A stretch of DNA of 64,000 nt from a virus. Taxonomy: Duplodnaviria > Caudoviricetes. A model generated the notes under the pieces. The model did no database searches. It was not told the origin of the DNA and saw nothing but the letters and a program-made list of their open reading frames with translations. The translations under genes were made by a program, and so were the position numbers. Position 1 is the first letter of the stretch. The number at the start of each line of letters is the position of its first letter. The stretch covers positions 34,780 through 98,779 of the IMG/VR virus record IMGVR_UViG_3300028591_000141; one strand, written 5' to 3'. Below are positions 2,882-52,223 of this stretch, in pieces.

Positions 2882-4465
2882 ATGTCCACCGCTAAGAAGA
2901 AGCTGACAACCTGTGAACCGAAGACGGCCGTGGCCTATGCCCGCTATTCGTCCGCCCAGCAGCGTGACGTATCCATTGAGCAGCAGCTGCGGGATATCAG
3001 GGCATACGCTGAGCGAGAAGGCTATAAGATCATATATGAATATGCCGATCACGCGAAGTCCGGATTCAAGAATGTCGAACGCCGGACCCAGTTCCAGGCC
3101 ATGATACAGGCAGCTGCCTCCGGAGCTTTTGACACAGTCATCGCCTGGAAGGTTGATCGCTTTGGCCGGAATCGCAGGGAGTCAGCAACCTATAAAGGCC
3201 AGCTCGCAGACAACGGCGTTAAGGTCGTATATGCTATGGAACCGATCCCTGACGGGGCCGCCGGTGTTCTTACTGAAGGGATGCTGGAATCCCTGGCAGA
3301 ATGGTACAGCCGGAACATATCGGAGAATACAAAACGCGGTCAGCTGGATAACGCCGTCAAAGGATTGTATAACGGCCACGTCGCGTATGGATACCGCCGG
3401 AGCGCTGATAACCGCTTCGAGATCTATGAGCCGGAGGCTGCAGTCGTTCGCCGGATCTTCGATCTGTACGCTCAAGGACACTCTTTTGCGGATATTGTCA
3501 GAGAATTAAATGATGATGGCATCCTGACCAAATACGGGAATCCGTACCAGAAAGCATCCGTCTTGTATATCCTTACTAATGACAACTATATCGGAACTTA
3601 TCATTTTGCAGACGTCAGGATCCCGAACAGCCTGCCACCGATCATTGATATGGACTTATGGGAACGTGCCCAGGAGCAGCGTCGGAAGACATACAAAAAG
3701 CACGGTTGGGCGCCGGAAGATTACTTTCTCTCTGGCCGCTGCACCTGCGGCCTCTGTGGTTCTCCGATCTATGGAGCGTATGGATCCGGACGCGGAGGGA
3801 AAAGGTATCAGTATTATCACTGCAAAGGAATTAAAACAAAACCAAGAATCTGTACATCGCACTATATGCACAAGGAAGACATCGAAAAGCCGATCTTTGA
3901 CTTCCTGTTTAACAAGATCCTAAAAGGATCGCTTCTGGACGATTATATCGGCATGGTCTCCGATGTGCTGAAGGCCCGTCAGGCGACGTCGCCGAAGCGG
4001 CAGCTGGAAGCTGAACTCAGCGACACCACACGCCGGATCGACAACATCACCCGCGCCATCAGCGAGGGCATCTGGTCAAAGCAGACCGCCGCCATGCTCG
4101 AAGATCTGAATAAACGGGCGGAAGAACTGGAAAAGAAGATCGCTTACCACAAAATGACCGACGAAAAGATCATCGCGGACAGCCGAATCAGGTTTATCAT
4201 GGAAAAGGTAGCAGATGGAAAACGTGACGATCCGGAATACCTGAAAACAGTGATCAATGTCCTGGTCAATCATGTCAGAATCTTTGATCACTGGCTGGAA
4301 GTCGCCATCAACGCAACGGGAGCCATTGAACAGATACCGCCGGAAATCCTTCCGCCGCTTGACGTTCTGCCTGACGGGAACCGGTTCGAGTTTTGTAAAG
4401 TCAACGCCCCTTCACTTTACGTTCTCGAACCATATCCAGTGATCGTCTTCAAGATTGCAATTTGA
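2882..4465 (+). CDS. large serine integrase (phage A)
   Basis: AVAYARYSS catalytic motif, DRFGRN, recombinase domain, CxCGxCG zinc ribbon, coiled coil. Confidence 0.93.
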   Translation: MSTAKKKLTTCEPKTAVAYARYSSAQQRDVSIEQQLRDIRAYAEREGYKIIYEYADHAKSGFKNVERRTQFQAMIQAAASGAFDTVIAWKVDRFGRNRRESATYKGQLADNGVKVVYAMEPIPDGAAGVLTEGMLESLAEWYSRNISENTKRGQLDNAVKGLYNGHVAYGYRRSADNRFEIYEPEAAVVRRIFDLYAQGHSFADIVRELNDDGILTKYGNPYQKASVLYILTNDNYIGTYHFADVRIPNSLPPIIDMDLWERAQEQRRKTYKKHGWAPEDYFLSGRCTCGLCGSPIYGAYGSGRGGKRYQYYHCKGIKTKPRICTSHYMHKEDIEKPIFDFLFNKILKGSLLDDYIGMVSDVLKARQATSPKRQLEAELSDTTRRIDNITRAISEGIWSKQTAAMLEDLNKRAEELEKKIAYHKMTDEKIIADSRIRFIMEKVADGKRDDPEYLKTVINVLVNHVRIFDHWLEVAINATGAIEQIPPEILPPLDVLPDGNRFEFCKVNAPSLYVLEPYPVIVFKIAI

Positions 4466-4466
4466 G

Positions 4467-4488
4467 TGCAAAATCACTGCAAAATCAC
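4467..4488. repeat. tandem 11-bp repeat TGCAAAATCAC x2 right after the integrase stop
   Basis: Read directly; may be part of the serine-integrase att region. Confidence 0.5.
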
Positions 4489-4518
4489 GACAAAGACATG
4501 GAAGTCTGTACAAAGTAC

Positions 4519-4550
4519 AAAAAAAGCGCCCCGGGAGAATTCCCAGGGCG
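4519..4550 (-). terminator. intrinsic terminator of the phage A late/lysis operon
   Basis: CGCCC.GGGA-GAAT-TCCC.GGGCG hairpin with A7 on + (U tract on -). Confidence 0.7.
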
Positions 4551-4567
4551 TTACTTATAGTCAACAG

Positions 4568-4807
4568 TTATTCTTCTTCATCGGGCGGTACTTCTTCTTC
4601 CGGAATCTCTACAATTCCGGCATTCGCTGCATCGATCAGGCCTTCACCGATGATATAGGCGACAACAGCCGCCCCGGCCATGATCAGCGCTGTCACCTGA
4701 ACAGCTGTTTCCTGTTTGCCTCCAAAGGCAAGGATCAGCATAGTAACGAATTCAGCGATAGCCGCCCAGAATTTCCTGCTTGTCAGTTTCCTTTTCCAAT
4801 CGATCAT
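4568..4807 (-). CDS. holin
   Basis: IDWKRKLTSRKFW motif, two TM helices, acidic tail; in lysis cassette. Confidence 0.8.
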   Translation of the reverse strand: MIDWKRKLTSRKFWAAIAEFVTMLILAFGGKQETAVQVTALIMAGAAVVAYIIGEGLIDAANAGIVEIPEEEVPPDEEE

Positions 4808-5232
4808 TCGTTTGTACCTCCATTTATAATATTTTCATGCTCAGCGGTGTATGCCGCTGCCTTTGTGGTCCGTTCGGTCATATACTCTGTCAGAGCTGTT
4901 ATCTGGTCCTTTAATTTGTCGTGATCGTTTCCTGAATAAAAGTGCATCATCAGCGCCATCTGAGTATTTAACATATGCCCCATGTCGTCAGATTGCAGCT
5001 CGAACCTTTTATCGCCCAAGCTGAGCCGCGCCTCCACTTTCTTCATCCTCCCTTCCAACGCAGCACACCTGTCAGCAATCGCTTGTACTTTGTCACGGAC
5101 GGATATTTTACGGTAGGCTTCCCAGCCTTTGACCAGGGCAACCAGGACGCCGGCGACGGCCACGACCAACGCGACCACATACAGGATCGAATCGAACGTG
5201 ATCCCTGCCTCCGGCAGTTTTACTTCAGGCAT
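4804..5232 (-). CDS. lysis-module membrane protein (TM plus coiled coil)
   Basis: Start MPEVKL overlaps the endolysin stop; one TM helix; resembles 48713..49207. Confidence 0.65.
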   Translation of the reverse strand: MPEVKLPEAGITFDSILYVVALVVAVAGVLVALVKGWEAYRKISVRDKVQAIADRCAALEGRMKKVEARLSLGDKRFELQSDDMGHMLNTQMALMMHFYSGNDHDKLKDQITALTEYMTERTTKAAAYTAEHENIINGGTNE

Positions 5233-6110
5233 CAGACAACACTCCCTTTCTTTATTACCGCGCCATGGTAGTTTCCGGCGATTGCCTGGGCCTGTGTCAG
5301 GTCCAGACCGGATATGATCACACTGTAAACCGTGACAGGATCCGGCTGTGGTTTCAGACCGTCCACAGCAGCCTGCAGCTCCGCCCATGTACGCGGACCG
5401 CAGATCCCGTCAATGCCGAGCTTGTGGTCCTGCTGGAACTCCTTGACGGCTTTCTCGGTGGCCGTGCCGAAGTCTCCGTCAACGCCGCAGATTCCGAGAT
5501 TGTACCCGAGCTTGTCGAGCATGGTCTGCAGCTGCTTGACGTAGGTGTTCCGGTTGCCTCTCCGGATCGTCGGCAGCTTTGCCGGCTGCGGTTCGGGCGC
5601 GGGTGCCGGCACGGGCTCCACACCGTCAAAAGAGACGTCTTTCAGCTCGCCCCAGTGCGTCCAGCGAGCCTCCGTCACCTTGGAGGTGATCACGCCCTTC
5701 TGGGTGCCATAGGCTTCGATTACGGTGCCGTTCCCGATAAACAAGCCGACATGGCCGTACTTTTTGTCCTTCTCCTTCCAGGTGAATACCGCCGTGCCGG
5801 GCTTCAGTTCCTGCCCGTCAGAGCGCTGGCCTTTGGACAACGTACCATTTGCCACGCACCATTTTCTGTACATAGTGTCAGATCCGTGGTACATGGTAGA
5901 CCCGAGCTGCTTGAACGCCCAGGTGAACATACCGGAGCAATCGGCGACATTGTGGCCCACCCACTTCTGGCCGTATTTCACGGTTTGCTCCCGCGTGGCA
6001 CGGTCCTGCTGGGCCTGCGTCCACTTCCCGCCGACAGCGCCCCATATATAGCCCCATTTATTTGATAAAGCGAATTGGAACTTACTGATCAGGTCGTTTG
6101 CCGTGATCAT
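5232..6110 (-). CDS. endolysin: NlpC/P60-type peptidase plus peptidoglycan-binding domain
   Basis: DCSG and HVGLFIG catalytic motifs; Pro-rich linker; DGDFGxxTExAVKEFQ PG-binding repeat. Confidence 0.9.
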   Translation of the reverse strand: MITANDLISKFQFALSNKWGYIWGAVGGKWTQAQQDRATREQTVKYGQKWVGHNVADCSGMFTWAFKQLGSTMYHGSDTMYRKWCVANGTLSKGQRSDGQELKPGTAVFTWKEKDKKYGHVGLFIGNGTVIEAYGTQKGVITSKVTEARWTHWGELKDVSFDGVEPVPAPAPEPQPAKLPTIRRGNRNTYVKQLQTMLDKLGYNLGICGVDGDFGTATEKAVKEFQQDHKLGIDGICGPRTWAELQAAVDGLKPQPDPVTVYSVIISGLDLTQAQAIAGNYHGAVIKKGSVV

Positions 6111-6408: not shown

Positions 6409-7407
6409 GTGTCCGATAATTCTGAACTGTTCCGAAACGAACTGATCGCGAAGCTCGAATCAATGCTCCCGCCGGAGCAGCTGAGGGCCGTCCTGGCTGC
6501 CTTTGACACGACCTCGGCGTCCTATCAGATCAGCCGGCAGCAGCTGGACCTGATCGCGACTGATGGCTTCCCGGAGCCCGTCAAATGGTATCTGGCATCG
6601 AAGGCCGTCGCCAACCGGAGCCCCGGCACCGTCAAGCAGTACCGTTATAAACTGCTACACTTCTTTGACACTGTCAAAAAGCCGTTCCAGGACATCCGGC
6701 CCAACGACATCCGCGTCTACCTCTTCCAGTTCAAGAAGGAGCGGAACGCGTCCGACTGTTACCTGGAGAGTGTCCGGATCACGCTCAACGGCTTTTTTGG
6801 GTGGTTGGTAGCCAACGAATACCTCATGCGGAACCCGTGCGCGAACGTGGAGAAGATCCATTTCAACGCGAAGCGCCGGGAACCGCTCAGCATGGAACAG
6901 CTGGAGACGCTGCGGTGGAACGTCCAGGGCGTCCGGGAAAAGGCGCTGATTGACTTCCTGTTCTCCACCGGCTGCCGCGTCTCTGAGTGCGCTGACGTCC
7001 GCCTGTCGGACATCGGCTGGAAGGACCGTTCCGTTCTGATCCGCCACGGCAAGGGCGATAAGGAACGCATTGTTTATTTCAACGCAGAGGCGCTTGTCTC
7101 CATGCGGAAATACATCGACACCCGCCAGGACGACACAGACGCGCTGTTTGTCAGCGTCAAGGCGCCACACGCCGCGATCGGCGCCCATGCGCTGGAGAAT
7201 ATCATCAGCAAGGTCGCCGGCAGGACAGATCTGCACGTTTTCCCGCACAAGCTCCGGCATACCTTCGCCACGGCCGGGATGAACAGCGGGATGCCGCTGC
7301 ACGTCCTCCAGCAGCTGATGGGCCATGCCAAACCGGAGACCACCATGATCTACGCGAAGCAGATGCAGGAAGGCCTCCGGGCCGAACATCAGCGGGTGTA
7401 CGCTTAA
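6409..7407 (+). CDS. XerD-like tyrosine recombinase between tail and lysis genes
   Basis: Full catalytic set TGCRVSE, GKGDK, HKLRH, MGH, TMIY; N-terminal SAM-like domain; GTG start at 6409 after AGGAAGG. Confidence 0.9.
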   Translation: MSDNSELFRNELIAKLESMLPPEQLRAVLAAFDTTSASYQISRQQLDLIATDGFPEPVKWYLASKAVANRSPGTVKQYRYKLLHFFDTVKKPFQDIRPNDIRVYLFQFKKERNASDCYLESVRITLNGFFGWLVANEYLMRNPCANVEKIHFNAKRREPLSMEQLETLRWNVQGVREKALIDFLFSTGCRVSECADVRLSDIGWKDRSVLIRHGKGDKERIVYFNAEALVSMRKYIDTRQDDTDALFVSVKAPHAAIGAHALENIISKVAGRTDLHVFPHKLRHTFATAGMNSGMPLHVLQQLMGHAKPETTMIYAKQMQEGLRAEHQRVYA

Positions 7408-7450: not shown

Positions 7451-7480
7451 TGACTGTCGGTGCTGCGTTAAATCAGTCAT

Positions 7481-7930
7481 TTATAACTTTGTATATAATG
7501 CCCTAACTTTAATTGTCCTGTTTGCTCCAACCTGTGCAAATGATTTATTCATGCCAAGCAACTGAACATACTGTACCGTTCCGTCTACAATACTCAAATT
7601 CGGATAAATACCATCTGTTGTTGTCAAATAATAAAGATCATCATTCTGAACAAACGTTGCCCCAATCAGAATATACCCTGCTATTGTTGCCGATGCTGAA
7701 ACCGTTCTGCCAGAACTTGAAGTTAATTCAATATTATAATCATAATAATGAACTTTTTTGACATTACTATTTAACGAATCAATCTGATCCTGGACAGATG
7801 TGTTCCCGACAGCGCCGAGTTTCGTGTCGAGAAGGTTGGAATTATAGTTGATATCGTCCACGCTGGCCGGGTCTGTTCCCTGGGGGATCCTCAGTCCGAT
7901 GTTCGGGGTCGGGGTTCCTGTTGCTGCCAT
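7481..7930 (-). CDS. tail-tip/fibre-like protein with a variable AT-rich C-terminal domain
   Basis: N-terminus TPNIGLRIP...DDINYNSNLLD typical of tail-fibre anchors; last gene of the tail operon; composition break at DSLNS. Confidence 0.65.
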   Translation of the reverse strand: MAATGTPTPNIGLRIPQGTDPASVDDINYNSNLLDTKLGAVGNTSVQDQIDSLNSNVKKVHYYDYNIELTSSSGRTVSASATIAGYILIGATFVQNDDLYYLTTTDGIYPNLSIVDGTVQYVQLLGMNKSFAQVGANRTIKVRALYTKL

Positions 7931-7932
7931 AA

Positions 7933-8310
7933 TTAATTACCACCTTTCTGATTAGTTGTGAATTGGACAAAACAATCAAGGGCGTCAACGTCATCCATGG
8001 ACAGCGTCAGCCCGGGAATAGAGATCGGAATCTGAACCGGTTTGACCTTCAGATCCACATCAATGTCACTGAGTTCTTTCAACCTCTGCCGGAACGCAGC
8101 AGCTGCTTCCTGACTCTCGAACGTGATGGATCCATCAGCATTGACTTTTGCGCTGTCGGTCATCTTTTTTTCTTCATCGAGTTGGAAGTCCCACTGAGGC
8201 TGCAGCGCCTGCTTGATCTTGAACAGATCAAAGGCCAGCTTGATCGGAAGATCTTGCTGGCCAAGTTTTGTTAATGCTTTGTATGCTTTTATTACCTTGA
8301 ATTGTTTCAT
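7933..8310 (-). CDS. tail-module hypothetical protein
   Basis: Co-oriented ORF with RBS in the tail operon. Confidence 0.6.
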   Translation of the reverse strand: MKQFKVIKAYKALTKLGQQDLPIKLAFDLFKIKQALQPQWDFQLDEEKKMTDSAKVNADGSITFESQEAAAAFRQRLKELSDIDVDLKVKPVQIPISIPGLTLSMDDVDALDCFVQFTTNQKGGN

Positions 8311-8319
8311 GCGTCCTCC

Positions 8320-8616
8320 TTATTCACCGAGTACATCTATCGGGACGGTCAGCGCGATACGAAGATTCCCGCTTTCCGCAAGCACAATAGCCTCGATCAG
8401 GTCGGTATATCCGCGGTATTCCTTACTCACTTCACCGCCAATCAAGCCCTGGATAAAGTTGGTTTCGTCAGTGTTGGAAAAGACCGGAATAATCTCCATC
8501 ATGCTCTTTCCGACAAATTCGATATAAAGAACTGATGTCACACCGATCACCGTCGCGCCCATGAACCGGATAGGAAACTCTTTCCCGGTTGCTGTTCTGA
8601 CAGACAATTCGTCCAC
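8320..8616 (-). CDS. tail-module hypothetical protein
   Basis: Co-oriented ORF; analogous to 54937..55203. Confidence 0.6.
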   Translation of the reverse strand: MDELSVRTATGKEFPIRFMGATVIGVTSVLYIEFVGKSMMEIIPVFSNTDETNFIQGLIGGEVSKEYRGYTDLIEAIVLAESGNLRIALTVPIDVLGE

Positions 8617-8630
8617 GGTATCCCTCCTTT

Positions 8631-11600
8631 TTAAGAATGTCCAAGATAGTCAGCGATCGACTTCGTTGTCGTTTGTTTGTTTGTGAAGTCGACAGCCGTC
8701 ACGACGTTGAATCCGTTTTTCCAGTTTGCGCTCTGATAACCATAGAAGCCGTTGCCGACATAGAGATTGGTGCCGTACAGGTAATTAGCCTTCAAGTAGC
8801 TTGCTGTCACAGATCCGGCGGTCAGGCTGTCAATGGTCGCCTTCGCAGAGTCACCGTTGTCAAGCGATGTCTTAACACCGGAGCTACCCTTTCCATACGT
8901 CACCGAACCGTTAGCAATCTTTGCCGTCCCGATCGAGCCGTCAGTCAGGTTCGTGGCGTTCATTGTCACGCCGCTGCTGAAGGTGATCGAGTCGACCGTG
9001 ATGTTGCCTTTGATTGTCGCCGCCGTGGCCGTCAACCGACCGGAATAGTCGACAAAGAACGGATATGTCCACGCGCCATAGCTGGACCCGTTCCAATACC
9101 TGGAACCGATCGCGAACGCCATTGTTCCGGCGGTGATGGAGTTCGGCGAGCTCATCCAGGCACCATACTGCGTTGTTGCGCTGCCAGGGTACACCGTACT
9201 CAGTCGCTGGATGTTGTTGCTGGTTATCTCCCATCCGGCTATCTCGCCCTTGGTAGAAACCATGGCGCCATCATATCGGACGAAAAACGGATACTGTTCC
9301 GGATTGCTACCCTGCTTTGTTCTTATCGCAAAGGCGGCATCGGTTGTGCTGACTGAACTCGGCGCCTGAATCATAACCTTGTATTCAGTACCGCCGGATG
9401 TGCTTGTTTTCGACAGCATATTGCTGCCGATATCCCATCCGCCGATCTTGCCGGATGTAGCAGTGATCTTTCCGTCAGTGGCAACGGTAAAATATGTCGA
9501 TGTCAGTGAGAATGTGCCGCCGGACGCGATTTGTATCGCTGTCGGAGTGATATAAATGCCGCTTCCGGAAGACCCGAGGCTGTTAAACTTCAGGGAACTG
9601 AGCTCGATCTTATTGTCGCTGATCGTGACATACGATTTCGCGATATAGTTCGATCTGATCGCGCTCTCAGCGTTTGAGGCCCTCGTTACTTCCGCTGTTA
9701 TGCTATTTGCGGTTTGTGTAATTCTTGTGCCAAGGGCCCCCTCGGCATTTGTTGCCCTTGTGACCTCAGCCGTAATACTGTTCGCGTTCTGCGTGATCCG
9801 GCTGGAAAGCTGAGTTTCACCGTTCCTGCGCTGTGAAACTTCGCTTGCGATCTGATTTGCCTGGATTGTCAGCTGAGCGGTGTTTTCGACCAGCTGATCG
9901 TTCATTGTTGCCTGAGCCTGGGCCATCAGCGTGATCTCTTTGTCATTCTCGATGATCGCTGTGGTATGTCTGACCTCAGCGCCGTGATCAGAAACAAGGA
10001 CCCAGTTGTAGCCGTCCCATGCGTACTCTTTCGGGCCCTCCATGCTGTTCCAGTCGTAGGTGGCGGCCAGCGTGTTCCAGGACATGGTCGCGGCCTTGTT
10101 CCACGTTACGACACTATATCCAGGCTCGGCCTTGATCCAGTGATCGCCCATATTGACGATGACACTTGAATCGTTCCGCGGATCCGTCAGTCGGATATAC
10201 GTCACGCCCTTCGTGGCGACGGAGGCCACAGCCATGTCGATCTCCTGCTCGGCGACTGTCAGCCGTGTTTCAAAACTGGTGAAGGATTCGCCGTCGTAGA
10301 TCTTCTGCCAGCTGCCGCCGTTCCATGTGTACATATTCGGCTCTGTAGCACCGCCCAGCTGCTGCCATGTGTGCTGCGCCGCCCATGACCAGGTGTGCTC
10401 GGCAACTTCATCCCACGCATAGCGCCGTTCAGACTCAACCCAGACATCGCCGGTATTGAATGTGTCCAGCCCATAATCAGCCGGGTCCGGAGGTGTCAGT
10501 GAGATATAAGTCTTGCTGAATCCTGTCGCCTGGACATTCAGGCCCTGGAAGTCCATGGCCGTCTGCCAGGTCAGTCCGCCGTCCCTGGTGAAGCCGATAC
10601 CGTACCTGGTGCCGTCATACTGGCCGATGCGGATCTGCTGGCCACTGTCCTGCGGGTTGATGATGTAGATGTTTCCGGCGTCCCAGTAGAAATTTGTCGT
10701 GCCCAGGATCCGGATCAGGTTTGCCTGCAGCACGCCGGAGGTGATGTAGTCAGCTACAAACTGCCCGTCAATGCTCCAGGCAGTGCCATATGTGCCGTGG
10801 TATCCGTCCTGACTGAAAGCGATGCCGCCGTTGTTCATGCGGATGATATTGACGGCGTCTTCGATGTCCGGCGCGTCCATGATCAGGATCTCGTCCGGCT
10901 CGCCGTCGTTGTCGGTATCGTTCATGACGACATAACCGCCCAGCTGGCCGGTGACGCGCTCCGACACCGTCCGCGCCGTATCCGCCAGGGTGGATGTCGC
11001 GGTGTACGCCTGGTCAGCCGTCTTTTTGATGCCTGTGATCGTGCCGGCGATCGACACCCGGATGGATCCGAGCTCGATCTTGCTATACTGCTCCGTCAGG
11101 ACATTCCATCGGGTCCGCACGCACTTTGCGGAGGCATTGACACCCAGCGCGTCAAAGTAGACGTGCACGGTGTCGCACAGATCCACGCGTTCTTTGATTT
11201 CCTCAAGCTGCACATAGCTCAGCTGAAGATTGACCACCGGAACGCCGATGTCATTGCTGTCAATGTACGCCTGAGCGGCCGTCCGCAGCTGGCTCTCGGT
11301 CGGTTCTTCCTCGAACCGGTCTGTCAGATCCACCGGGCAGATTTTTGTGAAGCTGAACGTGCCGGGCGCGTTGATGGTCTTTTCCGGCAGCGTGACAACG
11401 TATTTGGTTTCCGGATTGCACCAGTACGGATAGATCCCGGTGTATACGTTGGCGTTGTTCTCTTCCTGCTTGATGCTTGTGAGGTTCTTCCCGTAGCGAA
11501 TCGTAACGCCGCGGTCTGTGCCCCTGTTTGCATTAAAGATGCAGGAATAGCCGTTGTAAGCCCATTCACCGTGCCAGTGATCGAGCAGAGAGCCGGAGGT

Positions 11601-26511: not shown

Positions 26512-26859
26512 TCATTCCTTCACCTTCTTTTCCCCGTCAGCACAGAACCAATCCGGCGTAACAACAGTCCCGTTTCGTCCGCAGACATTTTCCTGTTCGG
26601 ATGGTATCCTATTGTCTGCAAAATACCAGTGTTTGCAATCCTTGCAGCGGACAACCGGAACAGCATCAATGGTTGGGGAAATGTCTTCATCGAGGAAATA
26701 ATCAATCGTGTCCCCAATATCACAGGCACGGCACGGAGCTTCGCCTATTTCGTAGCAAAAGCGGATTTTCCCGTTCTTCATTCCCTTTCGTCTGTCACAT
26801 TCTTTGCATCTAAACTCTCGCAAATATTTGATCGTTGCATCAGCATCAATCAACCTCAT
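26512..26859 (-). CDS. small Cys-rich phage protein
   Basis: MRLIDADA...PTIDAVPVVRCKDCK...DWFCADG. Confidence 0.7.
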   Translation of the reverse strand: MRLIDADATIKYLREFRCKECDRRKGMKNGKIRFCYEIGEAPCRACDIGDTIDYFLDEDISPTIDAVPVVRCKDCKHWYFADNRIPSEQENVCGRNGTVVTPDWFCADGEKKVKE

Positions 26860-27482: not shown

Positions 27483-27773
27483 TCAATCCCACTTCACAGG
27501 TCTGCCACAATCATCACAAAACTTTTGCTTGTAATACAATTCTGTTTTGCACTCACACAGATAATTATCGAAACTCGCTCGTTCGCTGTGGTTCATGCGT
27601 TTCGGTTTTACAGGTTCCTGCTCTTTCAGCATGGCAAGGGCATCACGACACATTTTTCTCAAGCAATCAAACCCAAATTTATCTTCTATATACGGGCATT
27701 CTCCGCATATAAAAAAATCTTCGTCCTTTTCGCAACACTCCAACCCTTTGATAACCTTCTCCCTGTCAATCAT
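27483..27773 (-). CDS. small zinc-ribbon protein, DREKVIKGL family
   Basis: MIDREKVIKGLECC...FCDDCGRPVKW. Confidence 0.7.
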   Translation of the reverse strand: MIDREKVIKGLECCEKDEDFFICGECPYIEDKFGFDCLRKMCRDALAMLKEQEPVKPKRMNHSERASFDNYLCECKTELYYKQKFCDDCGRPVKWD

Positions 27774-28002
27774 CGTCCGTTCTCCTTTTCCCGTCTGCGC
27801 AGAACCAATCAGCATTTGGTTTGAATTTCAAGCAATGTTTTTCTCTCATGCTTTCGCAATAACCATCGTCCATGAAACCATAATGGTCAATCAAATACTT
27901 GCATTCCTTGCACCGGACTAATTCTTTTGTTTCAAACGTTTTCGGACTACCATCCCATGCACGTTCTCCCGGTTCGTCAATGTTGACGATCATCGTTTTC
28001 AT
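27766..28002 (-). CDS. small Cys-rich phage protein
   Basis: LVRCKECKY...DWFCADG, shared with the 26512 ORF. Confidence 0.65.
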   Translation of the reverse strand: MKTMIVNIDEPGERAWDGSPKTFETKELVRCKECKYLIDHYGFMDDGYCESMREKHCLKFKPNADWFCADGKRRTDDD

Positions 28003-28009
28003 TTTAACT

Positions 28010-28333
28010 TCACCGACCTTCCCATAGAACAGGCTTTCCGCATTGCCTACAAAACTTTGCATATTCTTTTGCTTTGTCTATTCCATCATAAATGTGATAC
28101 ATATATGCTCCACACGAACCGCAACACCAAACAAAAATACCTTTTTCATCTTGCTTGAATGATGGCTCAACCGCTTCTTGCTCTTTCAGCAGAGCAAAGA
28201 TTTCTTCTGCTTTTGTTAGGCTTATAATCACTTCACTGAAAGATTCAGAGATTACTCTATTCCGCATACACGTTTCAAGATATTCAGCAAGGTTTTCAGC
28301 AACCTTTCTCTTCTCTGGAGCATAATCATACAT
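28010..28333 (-). CDS. small zinc-ribbon protein
   Basis: ALLKEQE...CGSCG...FCRQCGKPV. Confidence 0.65.
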   Translation of the reverse strand: MYDYAPEKRKVAENLAEYLETCMRNRVISESFSEVIISLTKAEEIFALLKEQEAVEPSFKQDEKGIFVWCCGSCGAYMYHIYDGIDKAKEYAKFCRQCGKPVLWEGR

Positions 28334-29914: not shown

Positions 29915-29940
29915 AAACAATCTCCAACAATTCGACAACA

Positions 29941-30058
29941 TTTCTACAATTAGACAACTGTTTTCGACAACTAAATCCGTGTTTTCTACAACTAATTGCC
30001 TGTTTTTCTACAACTAATAAACTGTTTTCTACAACAAAACGACTATTTTCCAACAACT
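29941..30058. repeat. iteron-like repeats, candidate replication origin
   Basis: TGTTTTCTACAACT-like units at about 29941, 29959, 29980, 30001, 30023, 30044 (21-22 bp spacing among the last five). Confidence 0.65.
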
Positions 30059-42185: not shown

Positions 42186-42381
42186 AGACGTCACCGTTGT
42201 CCTGAAAGACATGTCTCCGCATGTCCGCGGTTTTACCTGTCTCGGGTCTGACTATAGCCCGATTATCGTAATCAACTCACGCCTGTCCGCTGAACAGCAG
42301 CGGAAAACCTATAAGCACGAACTGGAACATATCCGCACCGGGCAGATTGACGATGACGACTACGTGGAGTACGCGACATGA
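42178..42381 (+). CDS. minimal ImmA/IrrE-like metallopeptidase
   Basis: HELEH motif; homologous to 2187..2387. Confidence 0.75.
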   Translation: MNEDVTVVLKDMSPHVRGFTCLGSDYSPIIVINSRLSAEQQRKTYKHELEHIRTGQIDDDDYVEYAT

Positions 42382-43535
42382 AACCGAAGACACGCGGCAA
42401 TGGGCAGGGCACTGCCTATCAGCGTCCCGGGGAAAAGACCTGGACCGTGGAAGTTGTGGTCGGCTGGAGATTCCCGGACGGAGATCCGTCCAGACCGAAG
42501 CGCCCGGTCCGGAAGAAAAAGGGCGGGTTCAAAACAAAAAAACTGGCGCTTGATTATGTTTCCAGCCTTCAAAAGCAGAGCGGCAAGCGTGTGCAGAAAA
42601 CGCTTGAAGAAGTCTGGCTGTCATGGAAGGCTTTTTATGAATCACGTGTCGTCAAATCTACCATGGATAATTACCTGTACGCCTATATGCATTTCAATCC
42701 GCTGCACGGCATCTTCATGGACAGGATCACAGCCAATGACCTCCAGTCCTGCATGGATCATTGCAAGTCAGGAAAGCGTACGCACGAAAACATGCGGTGC
42801 GTCGCGAACCTTCTTTGGAAATATGCCATCGATCAGAATATCATCGACCGGAACGTCGCTTCCAATTTATATATCGGAGACGGCGTGTCCGTCCAGCGCG
42901 AACCAATCGATCCGGAAGAGGAAGCGGTCATCAAATCCGCCATCGGCAGGATCCGGTACGCCGAATATGTTTACTGCCTGTGCTGGCTCGGCTACCGTCC
43001 TGGAGAAATGCTGCAGCTCCGAAAAGATCAGATGTTCTGCGCTCCCGTCAAAACAGACTCCGGTCTGATCCACGTTTGGTATTTTGTCAACGGAAAGAAA
43101 ACAGACGCCGGCAGGGACAGGATCGTGATCGTTCCGGACGAGATTCTCCCGTATGTCATTGCCCGTCTGTACATCCCCGGAACGGATCTTGTCTTCCCGC
43201 AGTATGTATTCAACCGGAAGAAAACGCCTTCGCTTGTTTGCTTTAAGGAAATGAGCCATGCCTATTTCCGAACGGAAATCTTCAAACCCATGATGAAAAA
43301 GCTGAACATTGCCGAAGGGAAAGTTCCCTATTCGGGCCGTCATGCTTACGCGGACAAACTGAAAAACGCAAAAGGCACAGAAAAAGACAAGGCCCAGCTC
43401 ATCGGTCACTCGTCCTATCTGACCACCGTAAACAAGTACCAGTCATCCCATCTGGAGGATCTCCACGCGCTCGTAAACTCGTTTTCTACTCCCACCGTAC
43501 TCCCACCAAAAAAACCGCAACACATTGATAAATAA
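42378..43535 (+). CDS. int: tyrosine integrase (phage B)
   Basis: RGNGQGT arm-binding N-terminus; GYRPGE, KTDAG, YSGRH, IGH, NKY. Confidence 0.92.
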   Translation: MKPKTRGNGQGTAYQRPGEKTWTVEVVVGWRFPDGDPSRPKRPVRKKKGGFKTKKLALDYVSSLQKQSGKRVQKTLEEVWLSWKAFYESRVVKSTMDNYLYAYMHFNPLHGIFMDRITANDLQSCMDHCKSGKRTHENMRCVANLLWKYAIDQNIIDRNVASNLYIGDGVSVQREPIDPEEEAVIKSAIGRIRYAEYVYCLCWLGYRPGEMLQLRKDQMFCAPVKTDSGLIHVWYFVNGKKTDAGRDRIVIVPDEILPYVIARLYIPGTDLVFPQYVFNRKKTPSLVCFKEMSHAYFRTEIFKPMMKKLNIAEGKVPYSGRHAYADKLKNAKGTEKDKAQLIGHSSYLTTVNKYQSSHLEDLHALVNSFSTPTVLPPKKPQHIDK

Positions 43536-50336: not shown

Positions 50337-50348
50337 CCTGTCCTCCTT

Positions 50349-50388
50349 AAAAGTAAAAGCACCCGCCGGTTCTCACCGACAGGTGCCT
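50349..50388 (-). terminator. leader attenuator-like hairpin before the lysis genes
   Basis: GCACCTGTCGG...CCGGCGGGTGC plus TTTTACTTTT directly before the RBS; shares 19 nt with 59379-59397. Confidence 0.65.
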
Positions 50389-50453
50389 AAACAAAAATGT
50401 TCACTTACATAAGTATTGTATCACGAACAGGATTTTAAATGCAAGAAATTGTT

Positions 50454-50756
50454 TTAAGATTCAGGTTCAGTTTCTTCTTCCTGTTCTGGTTCAGGTACAG
50501 GGAAAGAACCACGTGTTTTGCGTTCAAGCATGAACCCGTCAACAGTAGAAAGTGTAACGGTTGAAATTTGGCGCGTGTCAACCTTGCACATATCTGACCA
50601 AGCGTCGGACATATCACCTTCTGCCCTGATCTGCGCCTTGTCTATGTCATCACCGTAACTTTTACTGTCAAATCTTTTCGGATACCCGGAGATGTAGTTG
50701 AAAGTGCCGTTCTGATCCACGATGTGAGCATCAACAATGAAAATCTGCCTTGCCAT
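50454..50756 (-). CDS. hypothetical tail-region protein
   Basis: AAAGGA RBS; follows the site at 50782. Confidence 0.7.
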   Translation of the reverse strand: MARQIFIVDAHIVDQNGTFNYISGYPKRFDSKSYGDDIDKAQIRAEGDMSDAWSDMCKVDTRQISTVTLSTVDGFMLERKTRGSFPVPEPEQEEETEPES

Positions 50757-50852
50757 AATAAAATCATCCTTTCTTTTTGTTCGTTAATTCATTCTTTATC
50801 ATTTTTGATAATTACCGTTTCTCTGTGATATAATCAATACAGAGGTGGTTTT

Positions 50853-51011
50853 ATGGTTATCGTTTGCATTGTCGGTTGTCTTGCTATTGCATTGCTCCTT
50901 ATTGGAATAGTGTTTATTTACTATTCTGTCGGATATACTCATCATAAAAATAACAATAGTAAGTTATACCGTTTGGTTTGGTCTGTCATTGACAAAATTG
51001 ATGGACGATGA
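50853..51011 (+). CDS. 52-aa membrane moron with its own promoter (not in ORF track)
   Basis: TTGATA..TATAAT, GAGGTGG RBS, MVIVCIVGCLAIALLLIGIVFIYY. Confidence 0.6.
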   Translation: MVIVCIVGCLAIALLLIGIVFIYYSVGYTHHKNNNSKLYRLVWSVIDKIDGR

Positions 51012-51012
51012 T

Positions 51013-51177
51013 TCATTCATAGTTCAACTCTGCTCCAATCTTTTCAGACAATGCTACAACCATGTGATAAAACTCGTTTTCTTGTTCATAATCACTTTCG
51101 TACTCTTTGGTCAACAATATTGCTTCATGATAAAGCGTTAATGCTTTACGCAAAAGTTCAATCTGCTTTTCGTCCAT
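51013..51177 (-). CDS. 54-aa cassette ORF (not in ORF track)
   Basis: GGAGG RBS right after the site at 51191; MDEKQIELLRKAL... Confidence 0.55.
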   Translation of the reverse strand: MDEKQIELLRKALTLYHEAILLTKEYESDYEQENEFYHMVVALSEKIGAELNYE

Positions 51178-51192
51178 TATTGTTTTCCTCCG

Positions 51193-51300
51193 TTAATTCA
51201 TTCTTTGTTTCTTTGCTAACCTTTCGTCACGCTTTTTCAGTTTCTTATACATCCACTTGTTTGCATAGAACAAGTCGAGCATTTGAATAATGAAGTCCAT
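51193..51300 (-). CDS. 35-aa cassette ORF (not in ORF track)
   Basis: GAGGT RBS right after the site at 51310; its stop TAA lies inside the next site. Confidence 0.5.
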   Translation of the reverse strand: MDFIIQMLDLFYANKWMYKKLKKRDERLAKKQRMN

Positions 51301-51326
51301 GTTTTACCTCGTTAAATCATTTATGA

Positions 51327-52223
51327 TTAAGACTCTTTATAAAATACACGAACAGTATAATCCCCTGCAGGTACATTTGATAGAGTATCGATATTTTTTA
51401 ATCTGCAATAAATGAGATTATTGTATGTATAAATTATCGTTGCTATATAGTTTGCGCCAACAACATAAGCATTTAAAAATTTATCATAAGTTGCTTTATA
51501 ACCCGTTGCAGCACTAATATTAATGCCGTTATCATTTGTTATATTGACATCTTCATATACTATTTTGCTTTTATTGCTATTTACCGAATTAAATGTCCAT
51601 GTCCCATTATTAAAAGAGAAATTAACGAACTCGGCATTTGTTATGCTATAAAGCACTCCTGCATAGAAACCGCTTAAATTGTTTGATATGTAGTAGATGT
51701 TTCCTTCATAGTATCCACCATTGGAAAAACCACTATCTGTAAAGCGTGTAATTATGCCAATAACTCTGCTCTCACGAGCATTCATCGTTGCAATAACACC
51801 GGACAGATACGTTTTTACTGCATCCAATGACGCACATTCTGTAAGCGAAGAAACGGACAATTTGCTATTTAACGCATTCAAACCACCAGCAGAATCGGCT
51901 GTCAAATTACTACCGGACAAAGTACCGTTTGCGCTAATGTTTGATGTTGCAGTATACAGACCTTCGGACAAACTTCCGTGATTCCGAACGTATACGTACT
52001 GACCGGATGTAATCGCAGCGTGTGCGTTCCCATTCGCAACGATTGCCAAACCGTCTGCAAGATTGTTAATGCTTGTATTAACACTTGGGTTTCCACTGAG
52101 TCCAAATCCTGCACCAAACGCTGAGTCAATCGTGTCCATGTTGCCAGCCTGATTTGCTGGATAGGTTTTCATTTTTTCTGAACCTGACAGTTTGACCAGA
52201 TTCAGGTTTGTTGTGTTTGCCAT
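51327..52223 (-). CDS. tail-tip/fibre-like protein with two stacked variable domains
   Basis: TTNLNLVK...NMDTIDSA anchor; internal ALNSK and SVNSN junctions; last tail gene. Confidence 0.7.
   Translation of the reverse strand: MANTTNLNLVKLSGSEKMKTYPANQAGNMDTIDSAFGAGFGLSGNPSVNTSINNLADGLAIVANGNAHAAITSGQYVYVRNHGSLSEGLYTATSNISANGTLSGSNLTADSAGGLNALNSKLSVSSLTECASLDAVKTYLSGVIATMNARESRVIGIITRFTDSGFSNGGYYEGNIYYISNNLSGFYAGVLYSITNAEFVNFSFNNGTWTFNSVNSNKSKIVYEDVNITNDNGINISAATGYKATYDKFLNAYVVGANYIATIIYTYNNLIYCRLKNIDTLSNVPAGDYTVRVFYKES

Follow-up and report, generated by a model that had tools for sequence, protein, structure and literature searches.

In the R64/IncI shufflon, many segments of the gene for the plasmid pilus adhesin PilV are rearranged at sfx sites by the tyrosine recombinase Rci. 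Host-range switches of another kind are operated by Gin, Cin and Min of Mu, P1 and p15B, which are serine invertases that work with an enhancer and Fis, and integrons consist of the integrase IntI, attI/Pc, and attC sites that are imperfect palindromes of ~60-140 bp. The Rin shufflon, found in prophages of Bifidobacterium breve and Bifidobacterium longum, has short asymmetric in-frame sites and an arm-less XerD-like invertase (Mavrich et al. 2018, PMC6109161); the same study also reports an inverted locus that lacks a recombinase, and proposes an invertase acting in trans. In T4-type phages, PeSL mobile regulatory cassettes combine an early promoter with a terminator stem-loop (Arbiol et al. 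2010, PMC2839356).

The stretch of DNA analysed here (the window) is the last 64 kb (64,000 nucleotides) of a 98.8-kb IMG/VR record from a sheep-gut metagenome, and carries two prophages, A and B, whose hosts are probably Firmicutes of ruminants. The gene order in prophage B, the 'phage B' of the original prediction, is tape measure, glycosyltransferase, tail proteins, a 298-aa last tail gene, small ORFs, a 100-aa gene, and holin-like and endolysin-like genes. The relevant features, in window coordinates, are the following.

~7.4-42 kb, minus strand: prophage A
~45-64 kb, minus strand: prophage B
6409..7407, plus strand: Xer-like arm-less tyrosine recombinase, reversed between the last tail gene of prophage A and the endolysin; candidate trans-acting invertase
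7461..7930, minus strand: last tail gene of prophage A (7481-7930), containing an in-frame site (7763-7777); short inverted arm at 7461-7473, with a hairpin after it
50454..50756, minus strand: 100-aa gene, conserved, 3' of the tail gene in this phage group
50782..50797, minus strand: boundary motif copy 3, heading the leader of the 100-aa gene
50805..51011, plus strand, opposite to the late operon: self-promoted 52-aa membrane ORF (ORF 50853-51011), moron-like
51013..51177, minus strand: 54-aa ORF with its RBS
51191..51206, minus strand: boundary motif copy 2, containing the stop codon of the 35-aa ORF and preceding the RBS of the 54-aa ORF
51193..51300, minus strand: 35-aa ORF with its RBS
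51310..51321, minus strand: boundary motif copy 1, directly 3' of the tail-gene stop and 5' of the RBS of the 35-aa ORF
51327..52223, minus strand: receptor-binding tail protein (RBP), 298 aa, with anchor (residues 1-122), D2 (123-212) and tip D3 (213-298)
51573..51587, minus strand: in-frame site 2, encoding SVNSN, with one mismatch to the consensus; second-tier junction
51861..51875, minus strand: in-frame site 1, encoding ALNSK; proximal crossover-type site

We think it likely that the in-frame motifs of the RBP gene are sites of a Rin-type shufflon, of which the prophage B copy is frozen or dependent on an enzyme in trans, and that the motifs downstream of the gene are borders of small units rather than full sites. 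The original prediction had read all five motifs as sites at which successive insertions added both protein domains and small genes, through a recombinase since lost or supplied in trans. Its in-frame recombination sites, its missing local enzyme, the kind of enzyme it pointed to and its unit borders are retained here, while serial insertion of the domains, and insertion of the small genes by a recombinase, are not supported.

All five motif strings lie where they had been placed, and an enrichment scan puts their clustering at the locus far above chance. CGTTAAWTCATT has exactly three copies in the window, all inside 540 bp (four with at most one mismatch in the window scan, against 0.75 expected), across the entire 98.8-kb record TGAWTTAACG is confined to the late strand and has four copies, of which three are here and one is just 3' of the last tail gene of prophage A, and the three copies of CGKTAAAYAGYAA in that record are all within the last tail genes of prophages A and B. 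For comparison, a first-order model of the local AT-rich DNA predicts ~0.001 copies of each 12-mer per 2.3 kb. The exact 16-bp pair at 51191 and 50782 extends to 27 nt at 85% identity; a scan of viral contigs for the exact 16-mer gave 39 loci, which is about chance level on a rough estimate of the collection size, and an array in only one of them (L036). The claim that the in-frame and downstream motifs are the same sites did not hold, since the 8-mer CGTTAAWT is all that the two kinds of motif have in common.

The RBP belongs to a large family of ruminant-gut phage proteins in which a constant anchor is joined to swappable tips. Neither Pfam nor PHROGs gave a match for the RBP or for the 35-, 54-, 52- and 100-aa ORFs, in 50,697 phage records BLASTN found no more than a single 69-bp match to the locus, and a search of genome contigs with the RBP alignment found no relative. 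The 306 homologues of the RBP mostly match it within the first ~122 residues, and among the best 120 of these 306 the HSP ends cluster, 56 of the 127 HSPs ending at residues 122-123 and 7 at 213-216, positions that coincide with the two in-frame sites. Mosaic homologues are arranged accordingly at the same junctions. For instance, P0002, the closest homologue, has a near-identical D2 behind a more divergent anchor and in front of an unrelated tip, and in P0006 the anchor is joined directly to a D3-type tip. Homology to contigs from other studies also stops at site 1, at 51861 and 51864. An AlphaFold model of the RBP (pLDDT 55) is confident only at residues 61-115 and too poor for tip folds or a fold search, and no usable result for this protein came from the ESM Atlas or from a sequence search of the PDB.

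The peptide LNS[KN] recurs at the later junctions of multi-domain homologues and is nearly invariant, as a mere linker might be. The codons, however, are conserved as well. The junction leucine is TTA in 18 of 19 non-redundant loci, a codon that makes up only 3% of anchor leucines and 25% of those in tips, and 15 of the 19 have G as the last base of the codon before it, although the residue that this codon encodes varies between A, T and S. This pattern indicates a constraint on the DNA, CGTTAAAY(AGYAA), and not on the peptide alone. HSP ends, mosaic homologues and codon-level conservation thus agree with the original prediction in making the in-frame motifs domain junctions. The two-tier arrangement of prophage B is also found in L002 and L093. 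In a comparison with dif, no dyad was seen in the in-frame site.

The protein encoded at 6409-7407 has the Pfam Phage_integrase and SAM-like domains and is XerA/C/D-like, with scores under all curated family cut-offs; it is the only member of its clade in the 98.8-kb record, and the 45-64 kb prophage has no recombinase of that clade, in line with the absence noted originally. A single-protein search with it reached only relatives at 30-38% identity, and an alignment search was needed. Homologues that are 52-67% identical adjoin family RBPs in L060, L082 and L069, and ~17 viral loci have a common synteny of RBP or 100-aa gene, reversed recombinase, and endolysin. The closest homologue (67%) is in L060, which has a B-like gene order and the AAATAG variant of the site, the variant common to prophages A and B, and the recombinases of loci with the AAACAG site are 52-59% identical. 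The original suggestion of 6409-7407 as the enzyme in trans therefore named the right kind of protein, as its 52-67% homologues stand beside the site in more than 15 related phages.

Of two other recombinases, both lying at the outer ends of the prophage blocks, one is a large serine recombinase (CcrB/XisF-like) at 2882-4465 (plus strand) and the other a separate tyrosine integrase at 42378-43535 (plus strand). This makes 6409-7407 a third recombinase, in a position that is not integrase-like. Distant relatives of this third enzyme in human-gut phages (34-36% identity) have recurrent inverted repeats of their own, 0.9-2.9 kb apart and just 3' of the gene, in L158, L177-L179, L181 and L184 (~5937, 8300-8800) and in L166 (6239 and 7174); one of these repeats is a 14-15 nt GTTAAGATTCAATT motif, and that of L166 contains AACAGCAAT. 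The recombinase family may drive many more invertible loci.

In the related phages, the site is found both within the RBP gene and inverted downstream of it. In L119, L122, L113, L133, L120 and L118, the best inverted repeat is the site itself, over 15-23 nt at 86-100% complementarity. Between the arms of L122 lie the expressed tip, a 96-aa gene and an opposite-facing open frame of 83 aa in register with the inverted arm; the silent tip that this frame encodes shares 57% identity with the tip expressed in P0081. At nine loci (L109, L118, L119, L122, L133, L002, L052, L081 and L093), the inverted arm is followed in frame by a start-less silent tip of 80-106 aa, that of L002 being 94.6% identical to the silent tip of L118, which has the recombinase.

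In most of the silent arms, TAA takes the place of the TTA of the expressed arm (L122 6219-6239, L118 6292-6310 and 6901-6919, L109 5806, L002 6156, L093 6102). A stored tip would thus begin with an in-frame stop codon and be untranslatable, and inversion would exchange the stop for leucine; judged from the arm sequences, this suggests that the crossover is located inward of the TAA/TTA base. Among the fetched loci, no pair was found in which the same tip occurs in opposite states. Four loci (L113, L114, L120 and prophage A) have the recombinase and no silent tip, and the role of the enzyme may therefore be wider than tip switching, or differ from it.

Under the likely reading, the in-frame motifs (consensus CGTTAAAYAGYAA) would be the crossover sites of a Rin-type shufflon. 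In relatives, the Xer-like tyrosine recombinase lies between the RBP and lysis genes, and the in-frame site and its inverted downstream copy, which flank the tip DNA, would be its substrates, such that flipping would replace the expressed tip by the start-less silent tip stored in the opposite orientation. We infer tip inversion in these phages from this architecture and by analogy with Rin. The same architecture, an inversion that would swap silent tips, speaks against the serial site-specific insertion of domains that had been proposed.

Prophage B has kept two in-frame sites and has no recombinase of the clade. A silent tip is also absent, as the frames behind its three inverted motifs stop after 3, 7 and 13 codons, and prophage B as a working shufflon in its own right was rejected for want of tip-length frames there. 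At this locus, contigs from four other-study runs gave neither inversion nor excision products, and no strand-switch joints. Lacking both recombinase and silent tip, prophage B is either a frozen copy or dependent on an enzyme in trans. The obvious candidate for the latter would be the prophage A recombinase at 6409-7407, since the prophage A RBP carries the same AAATAG variant. Prophage A itself has a short, degenerate inverted arm of 13 nt that is 85% complementary, and the frame behind this arm stays open over no more than 11 codons. Two other records bear on action in trans: L002 (98% complete) has intact sites and a silent tip of 97 codons, and L088 (100% complete, with terminal repeats) has intact sites, both without a recombinase of the clade. 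That sites are kept in these phages points to trans action, and such action of a recombinase on the prophage B sites is plausible from the sequences.

The small genes between the RBP and lysis genes are as originally described, with ORFs of 35, 54 and 100 aa on the minus strand and one of 52 aa on the plus strand. The 52-aa ORF is indeed self-promoted (TTGATA-18-TGnTATAAT, 50805-50834, 11/12 matches), whereas the 35- and 54-aa ORFs have an RBS only; no terminator was found for the 52-aa ORF. Homologues of the 100-aa gene lie downstream of the tail gene in L044/L045, L060, L069 and L115, and in prophage B the gene is followed by a terminator-like hairpin (50357-50388). We also observed a promoter-like sequence, TTGCAT-N17-TACAAT, within 50337-50453, upstream of the holin-like gene. 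With the hairpin, this would allow the lysis genes of prophage B to form a separate transcription unit.

At each downstream motif, stop codons in two frames are followed by an RBS. A scan of the three motifs revealed no late-strand promoter or terminator stem-loop, and an inverted-repeat search of the locus no palindrome at any motif copy. The true distal arms of relatives read TTACTTCG-T(T/A)AA-AYAGCAA, and the prophage B motifs match only their outer 8-14 nt (for copy 1, the outer 12 of 14 nt match the true distal arm of L113). The inner half AAYAGYAA, present in all working arms, is lacking from them. Copy 3 can be aligned with the copies of the motif in L060, L115 and L119. In L060, L078, L119 and prophage A, too, the RBP module is directly followed by the motif (RAATGAWTTAACGNAG), and in 1.16 Mb of related loci the boundary motif gave 14 hits against one control hit.

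Contigs from other studies differ from prophage B by units bounded at these motifs, as had been anticipated for close relatives. Homology ends at 51321 (copy 1) in an X5 contig and at 51203 (copy 2) in an X3 contig, and breaks around copy 3 at 50792 and 50769-50805 in other contigs. In contig 18 of X4, from bovine gut, position 50799 is joined to 51861, 536 unrelated letters taking the place of 50800-51860; the phage concerned has the same anchor and 100-aa gene, with DNA that is different and half as long where prophage B has D2, D3 and the small genes. Individual units are also found in other contexts: the 54-aa ORF in an X3 contig, with 93% identical DNA, the 5' parts of the 35-aa and the 54-aa ORF, each with its motif, elsewhere among the other-study contigs, and the 52-aa ORF alone in an X5 contig. 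Together, the contig breaks and the relocated ORFs indicate that the motifs are true unit borders, and that each motif moves together with its downstream gene. The downstream motifs (GAATGAWTTAACG on the late strand) would then be the borders of small mobile gene units, perhaps descended from the distal-arm/leader region of the 100-aa gene, where units would be gained, lost and replaced. These units may spread by a recombinase or by short-homology exchange.

Arrays of the motif are not confined to prophage B. In L115, six copies lie between the tip stop codon and the 100-aa gene, adjoining the recombinase, and L036/G001 has a six-copy array in an early region related to prophage A, in a record without a recombinase of the clade. 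The L115 array (3975-5760, minus strand) was seen to hold genes for a membrane peptide and a 94-aa membrane protein, a zinc-ribbon gene like that of the prophage A early region, and a self-promoted pair that looks ribbon-helix-helix-like. Separately, the same 313-bp segment of a zinc-ribbon gene occurs twice in the 98.8-kb record (window 26530-26842; record 27769-28081, outside the window), both copies being 97-98% identical to the start of record G001. Prophage A also has four to five direct copies of (T)TGTAGAAAA after a CHC2 zinc-finger (primase-like) gene at window positions 29930-30040, and the same iterons are found inside the G001 array (L036 1384-1435); they may mark a replication origin or a set of operators.

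That one recombinase made the whole locus, as first proposed, is in our judgement doubtful. On this account all five motifs are sites of a single enzyme, now supplied in trans from 6409-7407, and domains and small genes alike were captured serially as circular cassettes, in the manner of an integron. The CGTTAAWT common to all motifs is consistent with such an origin, as are the direct-repeat arrays that flank single small genes here, beside the recombinase in L115 and in G001, the break in other-study contig homology at each motif, and the near-complete relatives that keep sites and silent tips without a clade recombinase and so make trans action plausible. However, the inner half that the downstream motifs lack is invariant in all arms that pair with an in-frame site, and no sign was seen of the recombinase having inserted the small genes; the G001 array sits in a record without the enzyme, and neither circles nor empty sites were seen in the contigs. 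Attention was also given to a true integron, and this reading was rejected: attC-like hairpins are absent, integron-integrase models scored 78 and 53 bits, far under their cut-offs of 265 and 435, and the motif is only 13-16 nt long. A related and still unlikely idea is that recombinases of the same Xer-like family use the 13-16 nt motif as a secondary (half-)site, such that the slot between RBP and lysis genes would be a miniature integron-like capture site in which small gene units accumulate, with RBP domains exchanged between co-resident prophages through one recombinase in trans.

It is improbable that no dedicated enzyme was involved, with LNS[KN] being a mere linker, the downstream repeats mere stop-plus-RBS junctions, and the shuffling due to homologous or microhomology exchange between co-infecting phages, as for PeSL cassettes or the 'box' motifs of T4-type tail fibres. 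Shuffling at short conserved intergenic repeats is documented in T4-type phages (PMC2839356), and the near-invariant peptide and the lack of a recombinase in prophage B would fit. The conservation of synonymous and flanking positions as DNA argues otherwise, as do the perfect inverted repeats that the site forms around tips beside a recombinase, complete with in-frame silent tips, and the motifs, on the late strand, have neither the promoter nor the stem-loop of such cassettes. Least probable is that the downstream motif is kept for expression, as an RNA operator, processing site or translational-coupling signal of a small-phage-gene regulon. In its favour, the motif in three arrays is on the coding strand, after a stop codon and before the next RBS, and contains a mini-frame ATG-NNN-TAA with an overlapping TGA. 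However, the 9 to 25 nt that separate it from the start codon are too variable to suit a fixed translational operator, homology breaks coincide with it, and the copy at 50782-50797 follows a reverse-oriented gene rather than a stop codon.

Tip-swapping switches set phage host range, and are thus relevant to the ecology of gut and rumen phages and to phage engineering. Here, a single 13-nt DNA site is conserved through 306 related RBPs and can occupy two successive domain junctions. The near-complete phages that have sites, some with silent tips, and no recombinase of the clade argue for enzymes shared in trans between co-resident prophages. Lastly, the boundary motif at the borders of small units provides a concrete sequence with which to test the entry of morons into phage late operons.

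In relation to known systems, the array resembles an integron in being a one-way series of promoter-less single ORFs split by a repeat, and its core resembles GTTRRRY / RYYYAAC, but it has no IntI, no imperfect palindrome of the attC type and no attI/Pc, and the repeat is far shorter. With the R64/IncI shufflon, the locus and its relatives have in common a tyrosine recombinase, short asymmetric sites, and a constant N-terminus fused in frame to alternative C-termini by inversion; there, however, the protein is a plasmid pilus adhesin and not a phage RBP, the segments are many, and the site sequence is different. Gin, Cin and Min similarly switch host range through inversion of the portion of a tail-fibre gene that encodes the variable C-terminus (PMC6109161), but are serine invertases, whereas the enzyme linked to the site here is a tyrosine recombinase. 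Like PeSL cassettes (PMC2839356), the downstream motifs are short intergenic repeats that flank small non-essential genes and bound insertions, deletions and replacements between relatives; in contrast to them, the motif is without promoter or stem-loop and consists of stop codons followed by an RBS.

The closest likeness is to Rin. Both concern a temperate gut phage whose RBP has a constant N-terminus and an asymmetric in-frame site at the junction of constant and variable parts, and the relatives described here also have start-less inverted tips and, beside the locus and separate from the integrase, a tyrosine recombinase that is arm-less and XerD-like. The two systems have unrelated RBP families and unrelated sites, the site being 13-23 nt here and 11 bp (TTCCCTAACCC) in Rin. 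Unlike Rin, the phages of this group have up to two in-frame tiers, most silent arms have TAA for TTA, and most loci have one silent tip or none. Of the hallmarks of a Rin-type shufflon, prophage B displays the in-frame junction site, and neither the inverted silent tip nor the adjacent arm-less tyrosine recombinase; to these differences it adds an array of small genes bounded by a half-site-like motif. The principle of the Rin-type shufflon has already been described, and we regard prophage B as a recombinase-less variant of it, with an array of boundary motifs that is unexplained but real.
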